From Escherichia phage CBA6, in sequence record KM389299.1: a DNA stretch of 4,837 nucleotides. The stretch is one strand, 5' to 3'. A model generated the notes under the pieces. The model was given only the letters and a program-made list of their open reading frames with translations, was not told where the DNA came from and did not search any database. Every line of letters begins with the position of its first letter. The stretch's first letter is position 1. Shown here one piece after another: positions 2,503 through 2,584 of this stretch. The position numbers and the translations under genes are program-made.

Positions 2503-2584
2503 TGCAACTTTGATGGCTCTAGATTTTATAAACCAAGTCTATGGGTGACGCGGGATCTTTAGTCCTAGAGCCATCAAAGTTGTG
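2503..2584 (+). repeat. 20-bp inverted repeat / helix (2503-2522 pairs with 2565-2584; 18 Watson-Crick plus 2 terminal wobble pairs), 42-nt loop
   Basis: CAACTTTGATGGCTCTAG pairs with CTAGAGCCATCAAAGTTG perfectly, extended by g2504-t2583 and t2503-g2584. Confidence 0.5.

Follow-up and report, generated by a model that had tools for sequence, protein, structure and literature searches.

Hairpin I1, an inverted repeat at positions 2503-2584 of the window (the whole 4,837-nucleotide stretch of Escherichia phage CBA6 analysed here, record KM389299.1), is almost certainly a selected RNA helix, and compensating mutations appear to keep it in about 270 Vi1/CBA120-like phages. By analogy with known processing stems, we read it, at a probability of roughly 0.4, as a double-stranded boundary or insulating element and candidate RNase III processing site.

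The window is the tRNA region of a Kuttervirus phage (Ackermannviridae). Megablast aligns it with Salmonella phages SS3 and Vi01 and Escherichia phage CBA120, and 324 phage records match it in all, from Salmonella, Klebsiella, Escherichia, Dickeya, Serratia and Shigella phages. No credible ORFs were found between the small ORF listed in Table 1 and ~2790, and GenBank records leave this ORF-poor stretch empty or assign it inconsistent small 'hypothetical proteins'. Positions ~650-2790 (~2.1 kb) are an ORF-poor, mosaic island of non-coding RNA on the 5′ side of the Ackermannviridae tRNA cluster. A conserved ORF running across I1 (2321-2548) was rejected, because it is not kept in relatives, which have indels and a 215-nt module insertion there. 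Literature searches for Ackermannviridae non-coding RNA, tmRNA or transcriptomes, or for the sequence words of the RNA family described below, returned only ARAGORN citations and unrelated papers, and no transcript-end or RNA-seq data for these phages were found in the literature.

Table 1. Coordinates of I1 and of the other features of the window discussed in the text.
Feature	Position	Strand	Description or evidence
Small ORF	501-647		
Inverted repeat I4	1225-1246/1286-1307		long inverted repeat of the island; span 1225-1307
tmRNA-like mRNA domain	1338-1397; tag frame 1362-1397		reads ANDNTFLAVA, then two stop codons
tmRNA-like 3′ T-arm and acceptor strand	1655-1712		GGAUGUAAGG...GGGUUCGACUCCC...CGGCUCCA
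Inverted repeat I3	1711-1734/1820-1843		long inverted repeat of the island; span 1711-1843
Inverted repeat I2	1989-2010/2103-2124		long inverted repeat of the island; span 1989-2124
Upstream hairpin S0	2487-2510 (2487-2496 with 2501-2510)	+	10 bp, AUUG loop; minimum-energy fold in context, RNAalifold
Hairpin I1	2503-2522 with 2565-2584; 42-nt loop 2523-2564	+	long inverted repeat of the island; sequence, inverted-repeat search, covariation
I1 loop motif U.UGG.UGAC	2540-2549	+	TATGGGTGAC in the window; near-invariant A1 columns T80 T82 G83 G84 T86 G87 A88 C89
Closing stem P1, 5′ strand	2579-2591	+	inverted repeat I7, 13/13 complementary to 2776-2788
Core enclosed by P1	2592-2775	+	~185 nt, multi-helix; RNAalifold covariation
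First core hairpin	2596-2603 with 2627-2634; apical loop 2604-2626	+	matches phage-wide family
Closing stem P1, 3′ strand	2776-2788	+	inverted repeat I7
HNH ORF	2816-3229		HNH_3 domain, E = 1e-12; in-frame TAA 3035-3037 before the domain
tRNA genes	Met 3220, Trp 3536, Asn 3621, Gln 4525, Tyr 4750	+	ARAGORN, Rfam

Pairing, covariation and loop of I1

The arms of I1, TGCAACTTTGATGGCTCTAG (2503-2522) and CTAGAGCCATCAAAGTTGTG (2565-2584), form 18 Watson-Crick pairs plus the wobbles U2503-G2584 and G2504-U2583, and direct reading confirms exactly the 20-bp helix of 18 perfect pairs and two terminal wobbles around a 42-nt loop that had been described in the first-pass annotation. The perfect inverted repeat observed is 18 bp, against a maximum of 14 bp in 300 dinucleotide shuffles of the window, and RNA 2480-2600 folds at -45.6 kcal/mol (z = -5.2), a value equalled by 0 of 200 shuffles. 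The inverted-repeat search can extend I1 to 2497/2590 past one T-T mismatch. This 26-nt arm (2497-2501 with 2586-2590) was rejected as a selected structure, because 2502/2585 is mismatched in all but one of 25 sequences (the exception, L014, has a G-T wobble) and because 2502 covaries with 2495, 2585 with 2782 and 2590 with 2777. The firm core of I1 is its upper 12-16 bp (2507/2511-2522 with 2565-2576/2580).

Homologs were drawn from GenBank phages and IMG/VR, and the resulting alignment, A1, holds 25 distinct hairpin-bearing sequences. Across the 20 pairs of I1, 99.2% of cells are standard pairs and 8 pairs have changed on both sides, among them 2510/2577 (UA/CG), 2514/2573 (UA/GC), 2516/2571 (GC/AU), 2518/2569 (UA/AU/CG) and 2521/2566 (GC/AU/CG). 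Double-changed cells number 34, compared with 8.1 +/- 2.3 in shuffles, and the score is reached by 0 of 500 shuffles; the independent events are fewer than these cell counts suggest, since the sequences span only ~5 clades. When the partner strand is slid by 1-3 columns as a control, pairing falls to 34-40%. Conservation of the pairing in homologs, on which the original proposal had been made to depend, is therefore clearly favoured.

G-U cells in I1 total 63 (15 outside the two invariant wobbles) against 2 A-C cells, and selection has therefore acted on the plus-strand RNA, which is also the strand of the tRNAs, rather than on DNA or the opposite strand. The same bias bears on a role for I1 as a palindrome in DNA, whether as a cruciform, a recombination hotspot, an endonuclease target or an origin element. 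The 18-bp perfect arm pair, the exchange of modules in this mosaic region and the presence of two homing-type endonuclease genes nearby would suit such a role. A G-U pair, however, is an A-C mismatch in DNA or on the other strand, and the point of HNH insertion (2794) is 210 nt away; we give a DNA-level function hardly any probability.

The helix is 19-22 bp long in every haplotype, whereas its loop is exchanged among clades and comes in four types, one in Kuttervirus, one in Agtrevirus/Taipeivirus, a third in two further sequences (L029, L030) and one in Limestonevirus, where a ~19 bp helix is capped by a GAAA tetraloop. The motif U.UGG.UGAC is near-invariant in the three long loop types, which are otherwise unrelated, and is absent from the Limestonevirus version. 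A conserved partner for it was looked for and not found. Loop-loop kissing of 2539-2547 with 1250-1258 in the I4 loop was treated as chance, because Vi01 has the same I1 loop and a different I4 loop, as was pairing of 2546-2556 with 1726-1736, because one relative (L012) is without 1729-1986. By inspection, pairing of the loop's GGUGAC with the 3′ end of tRNA-Met fails in Agtrevirus.

Retention of this motif in three loop types, together with a precursor-like hairpin shape, could also mean that I1 is cut in its stem and releases the loop as a ~60-80-nt small RNA. I1 lies outside every Rfam family; two microRNA precursor models match it below threshold (RF03717 mir-3119, 29.4 bits with a gathering score of 80; RF00704 MIR397, 25.3 bits with 55) because of its shape, and are generic long-hairpin matches in a phage. 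These scores fall far short, the whole loop is GAAA in Limestonevirus and no conserved target complementarity was found, which makes a small-RNA precursor very unlikely. A search of E. coli chromosomes and their prophages (5,426 E. coli genomes) with 2480-2795 gave no match.

Helices sharing strands with I1, and the downstream HNH gene

I1 had been placed near the 3′ end of a structured region; this is wrong, as ~200 nt of highly conserved structure (2592-2790) come after it. Two helices compete for its base: the 3′ strand of S0 overlaps the base of the 5′ arm, and the 5′ strand of P1, the stem that closes the downstream core, overlaps the base of the 3′ arm (2579-2584). RNAalifold draws S0 as 2491-2496 with 2501-2506, and its pair 2495/2502 occurs as AU (18 sequences) or as GC (5); the covarying pairs of P1 are 2590/2777 (CG 18, UA 7) and 2585/2782. 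Jointly, S0 and P1 are 96.4% paired, with a covariation score reached by 0 of 500 shuffles. The P1 duplex is kept in 28 of 28 distinct sequences at -16.6 to -25 kcal/mol, and Miltonvirus, which is without I1, keeps it with compensatory change at four positions. Its 3′ strand stands just before tRNA-Met in most relatives, and before the HNH insertion in the window.

Competing folds had been proposed in the first-pass annotation from the alternative pairing AGTTGC/GCAACT (2488-2493 with 2504-2509). Competition is real, but that pairing is the outer part of S0 and, taken alone, covaries no better than the shuffle control; the competitors are S0 as a whole and, more importantly, P1. Three-way covariation of 2488/2509/2578 was rejected, the changes being one-sided on counting.

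On A1, RNAalifold makes S0, the upper 16 bp of I1 and P1 (2581-2591 with 2776-2786) abut without linkers, and the lowest 4-8 bp of I1 have strands in common with S0 and P1. As modelled, the three helices form a three-way junction that can slide. Thermodynamic fold models, which leave out tertiary structure and proteins, give for the window's 316-nt context a minimum-energy fold with 10 bp of S0, 12-14 bp of I1 and 13 bp of P1, and forcing the full extended I1 costs ~10 kcal/mol. The upper 12 bp of I1 are predicted to form in all 25 sequences. The base is predicted to pair upstream (~0.8-0.9) in 5 of the 25 (L011, L014, L023, L027, L030) and downstream in most others.

The base of I1 could then be a folding switch, toggling between full I1 and S0 plus P1 and gating the closing stem of the core, either to guide folding during transcription or to set a regulated on/off state. 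The four segments do make up two sets of pairings that exclude each other, the set predicted to prevail differs from phage to phage, and all three helices covary. However, 2503-2509 and 2578-2584 hardly vary, so that covariation cannot show both states to be selected; the AGTTGC/GCAACT pairing does not rise above its control, and no ligand, protein or expression platform is evident. We consider a switch improbable; it is compatible with the boundary reading as well as with the architectural one weighed below.

I1 had also been noted to lie upstream of the HNH gene and proposed as a processing site, the reading that we favour, or as an attenuator-like element. In favour of an attenuator or terminator controlling the HNH gene, I1 lies ~230 nt before the HNH start codon and alternative hairpins exist, but the comparison with relatives separates the two elements. 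The HNH ORF, which at its 3′ end runs into the first 10 nt of tRNA-Met, is absent from 11 of 11 relatives fetched (L001-L007, L009-L012), of which 10 keep I1, and is therefore a recent insertion, probably decaying. In the same 11 relatives tRNA-Met is 0-200 nt away from the equivalent of window position ~2793, and in L005 and L009 the two adjoin directly. The window copy carries an in-frame stop ahead of the HNH_3 domain, and the conserved core and P1 stand between I1 and the gene. No U-tract follows I1 (the sequence 3′ of 2584 is TCCAATCTGATCTTACAAG, with no T-run), and a terminator scan of 2503-2600 on both strands found no site. Since the HNH ORF is a sporadic, interrupted insertion and a U-tract is missing, neither the link nor attenuation is supported, and control of the HNH gene by I1 is extremely unlikely. 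The tRNA cluster has a second nuclease gene, an ORF at 3717-4148 between tRNA-Asn and tRNA-Gln that encodes a PD-(D/E)XK endonuclease (Pfam PDDEXK_5, E = 7e-26).

The conserved core and the modules of the island

I1 stands exactly at the 5′ edge of a conserved RNA of ~200 nt that is closed by P1 and adjoins tRNA-Met. Of the 72 pairs drawn by RNAalifold, 18 have changed on both sides. We found the core in 273 phage records; nearly all are from Ackermannviridae, and most leave it unannotated. Positions 2585-2800 have no match in Rfam 15 even at E<=10, and no model of GOLLD, ROOL, HEARO, T-box, RNase P or group I intron matches the window at E<=1 or 2585-2800 at E<=10.

The first core hairpin (2596-2634) recurs in a phage of the Stephanstirmvirinae, where tRNA-Asn and tRNA-Thr lie on either side of it, and in one of the Casjensviridae, where tRNA-Met follows it directly. 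The family to which it points has as its signature the hairpin loop GCCCGWAUCCCnnnnUGGUYAAGAC ... GGCAAACC ... G-UGGAAAG-C, and the exact signature-loop pattern is found at 2603-2627 of the window. An exact-pattern scan with the apical loop (GCCCGWATCCCNNNNTGGTYAAGAC) returned 72 IMG/VR stretches, ~50 from unrelated contigs of 12-358 kb, and only 3 matches among 185,579 species genomes of bacteria and archaea, each of them in a MAG. Non-Ackermann members have a common architecture of ~140 nt with 20 of 27 pairs double-changed, and match nothing in Rfam at gathering thresholds or at E<=10. The family is often found inside tRNA arrays; 18 fetched stretches have no same-strand tRNA.

A covariance model built from 21 non-Ackermann members (R1) matches window 2589-2654 with 38.4 bits (E about 2e-7), aligning only the first hairpin and the adjoining GUGGAAAGCC; the canonical remainder of the family fold consists of a CCGG/CCGG long-range helix, a GNRA hairpin and the terminal G-UGGAAAG-C hairpin. 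Intermediates exist, at 55.8 bits (L008; KP13-26, which aligns over its full length) and at 36 bits (L034). Together with words common to core and family (UUGCCGUGAGG, GACCnACAGAAG and CAAAC), they suggest that the rest of the fold has diverged in the core rather than being absent. Based on these comparisons, the Ackermannviridae core is a probable divergent member of an apparently undescribed, phage-only RNA family, homology beyond the first hairpin being tentative. The signature loop and a UGGN-containing bulge of the family recall the way in which T-box leaders and RNase P contact the elbow and the CCA end of tRNA, and the class may bind or act on tRNAs.

Upstream of I1 the island is a mosaic, with blocks present or absent among genera and breakpoints at or near long helices. 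I2, I3 and I4 have 22-24-nt arms and variable loops of 39-92 nt; I3 and I4 carry compensatory changes in relatives, and mosaic breakpoints fall in or beside I2 and I3. By group, the I4 arms read UUUGAGUCCUGG/UUAGGACUCAAA, UUUGGGCAUUAG/CUUGUGCUCAAA and UUUGGGGGUUAAG/CUUAACCCCAAA. A sigma-70-like promoter match at 1187-1214 (TTATCA/TTGTCA, 16 nt, TATAGT), directly 5′ of I4 and the tag module, is kept in all genera including Miltonvirus and Limestonevirus, and may mark the start of the island's main transcript.

In Klebsiella phage Menlow (L004 2806-3020) a module of ~215 nt just 5′ of S0 matches STnc100 (RF02076) with 53.2 bits against a gathering score of 47, and the island therefore hosts modules of a known sRNA type; sequence comparison suggests that Serratia phage IME250 and Shigella phage ChubbyThor (L005, L011) carry the same one. 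STnc100 is a prophage-encoded enterobacterial sRNA related to PasD (bioRxiv 10.64898/2026.05.13.724894). Its module is absent from the window, where its place would be between 2457 and 2483, and its model does not cover I1. Copies of GUGCGRGUUGY, the sequence of the S0 5′ strand, appear to bracket the module.

Two further modules resemble parts of tmRNA (ssrA). The tag frame, GCU AAU GAU AAC ACG UUC CUG GCA GUA GCU UAA UAG, follows AAAAAUAAUC and encodes a peptide like the E. coli tag ANDENYALAA; it has the alanine start, the hydrophobic C-terminus and the resume-codon context of a tmRNA tag. Aligned homologs (L003 among them) give the variants ANDSEVLMAA, ANDNAYLMVA, ANDNAYLAVA and ANSDEFLMAA; the 10-codon frame, its length and its stop are kept, and changes are synonymous or conservative. 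Rfam tmRNA models align weakly to this region. The segment at 1655-1712 resembles the 3′ end of enterobacterial tmRNA (in E. coli, GGAUGUAGG...GGGUUCAACUCCCGCCAGCUCCACCA) and is absent from Agtrevirus SKML-39 (L003). Unlike in tmRNA, a complete tRNA-like domain was not found: a 5′ acceptor strand matching 1655-1712 (paired acceptor, G3-U70) was looked for without success, GGGGCTT at 762 belonging to a local hairpin and GGAGCC at 1808 lying in a variable loop missing in L012. Neither ARAGORN, run on the window and on 13 loci, nor Rfam, run on the window, calls a tmRNA. These tmRNA-like parts lie 800-1100 nt upstream of I1.

Three other elements, at 1069-1169, 1515-1581 and 4605-4745, are tRNA-like, with an acceptor stem, a GGTTCGAnTCC T-arm and aberrant or expanded middles, and are not called by ARAGORN. 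The acceptor of the first covaries (GACGAGG/CCTCGTC, compared with GGCGAGG/CCTCGCC in L003), and the last ends in an encoded CCA.

I1 as a proposed boundary element

Other phages carry a tRNA or a related element at the place of I1. In Miltonvirus (L007, L026, L033) the element directly 5′ of P1 is long and tRNA-like, has a T-arm and ends in an encoded CCA (...GGAGGTTCGAATCCTCACTCGGGTGCCA), and in 11 of 47 distinct non-Ackermann members of the family a same-strand tRNA ends 9-19 nt upstream of the family RNA. On an unrelated 75-kb viral contig (L052, ~1012-1105, minus strand) a perfect 22-bp helix with a 47-nt loop stands 2 nt before the family RNA, a layout that mirrors that of hairpin and core in the window. 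The tRNA and tRNA-like elements fit a role for I1 as processing punctuation of the kind that tRNAs provide through RNase P, RNase Z and RNase E signals; I1 itself has no tRNA features, and the equivalence is positional only.

E. coli RNase III cuts perfect duplexes of about two helical turns and is not very selective for their sequence; its substrates include the early transcripts of T7 and the precursors of rRNA and of the T4 tRNA cluster. Like these stems, I1 is double-stranded RNA of about two turns between RNA modules, with a conserved stem and a free apical sequence, in an enterobacterial host that has RNase III. It differs in that T7 sites have internal loops whereas I1 is perfect, and in that its base is common with two other helices, so that the full duplex may be only transient. 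In the sequence of events that we propose, full I1 would form first during transcription, when the polymerase still has ~190 nt to go to the 3′ strand of P1, and would thus insulate the 5′ strand of that stem against upstream modules. Host RNase III would then cut this ~20-bp perfect duplex, which would separate the upstream modules from the unit of core and tRNA-Met and free 2579-2591 to close P1. I1 would thereby take the part that a tRNA or tRNA-like element plays at this position in other phages.

Set against the ~20 bp at which RNase III acts, isolated I1 measures 19-22 bp; in the 316-nt context it is predicted to retain 12-14 bp, and more in some relatives, so that at predicted equilibrium the duplex may be too short for the enzyme. 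Two further points tell against RNase III: a processing role does not explain the conserved loop motif, and a perfect long helix with a variable tip also resembles a peripheral strut of a large RNA. The main rival is accordingly that I1 is a purely architectural arm of a large folded non-coding RNA, never cleaved, with a tip that tolerates insertions. This would account for a stem kept while clades swap the loop, for end-to-end stacking of I1 on S0 and P1, for the compact multi-helix RNA next to it and, through a possible tertiary contact, for the loop motif. Miltonvirus, however, has the core without I1, which is therefore dispensable for the core fold; struts of large RNAs are usually bulged, whereas I1 is perfectly paired over 18-22 bp, and the partner that a tertiary contact would need did not emerge. 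We judge an architectural arm possible, and on the unlikely side.

I1 is neither a terminator nor a miRNA-like gene. By itself it is a well-supported element of an ordinary type, a conserved RNA stem that is probably a processing or insulating site. The less ordinary part is its context, an unannotated modular RNA island with an apparently undescribed phage-only RNA family. GOLLD and ROOL are large ornate phage RNAs found beside tRNAs, and the island is likewise a long, covariation-supported, unannotated structured RNA by phage tRNA genes; it differs in having no Rfam match to either, or to another large RNA family, and in that it has no single conserved fold but is pieced together from separable modules. 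As a tentative wider reading, the core would belong, as a divergent member, to a phage-specific class of structured RNA of ~140-250 nt that is undescribed, and I1 would be its double-stranded boundary or processing signal on the 5′ side; this RNA would share one processed 'RNA island' with tmRNA-derived, tRNA-like and sRNA-like modules.

I1 is thus an entry point to an unannotated 'gap' of ~2 kb in ~270 genomes that is a structured, predicted-transcribed RNA island under selection, and the core at whose edge it stands is a probable member of a phage-only RNA family that is widespread. The genomes concerned are those of therapeutic and biocontrol phages, including Vi01, CBA120 and the Dickeya and Klebsiella Ackermannviridae. 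If I1 is an RNase III site, rnc and stem mutants would offer a simple handle on maturation of the island, on the roles of its RNAs and on the tmRNA-like tag module.
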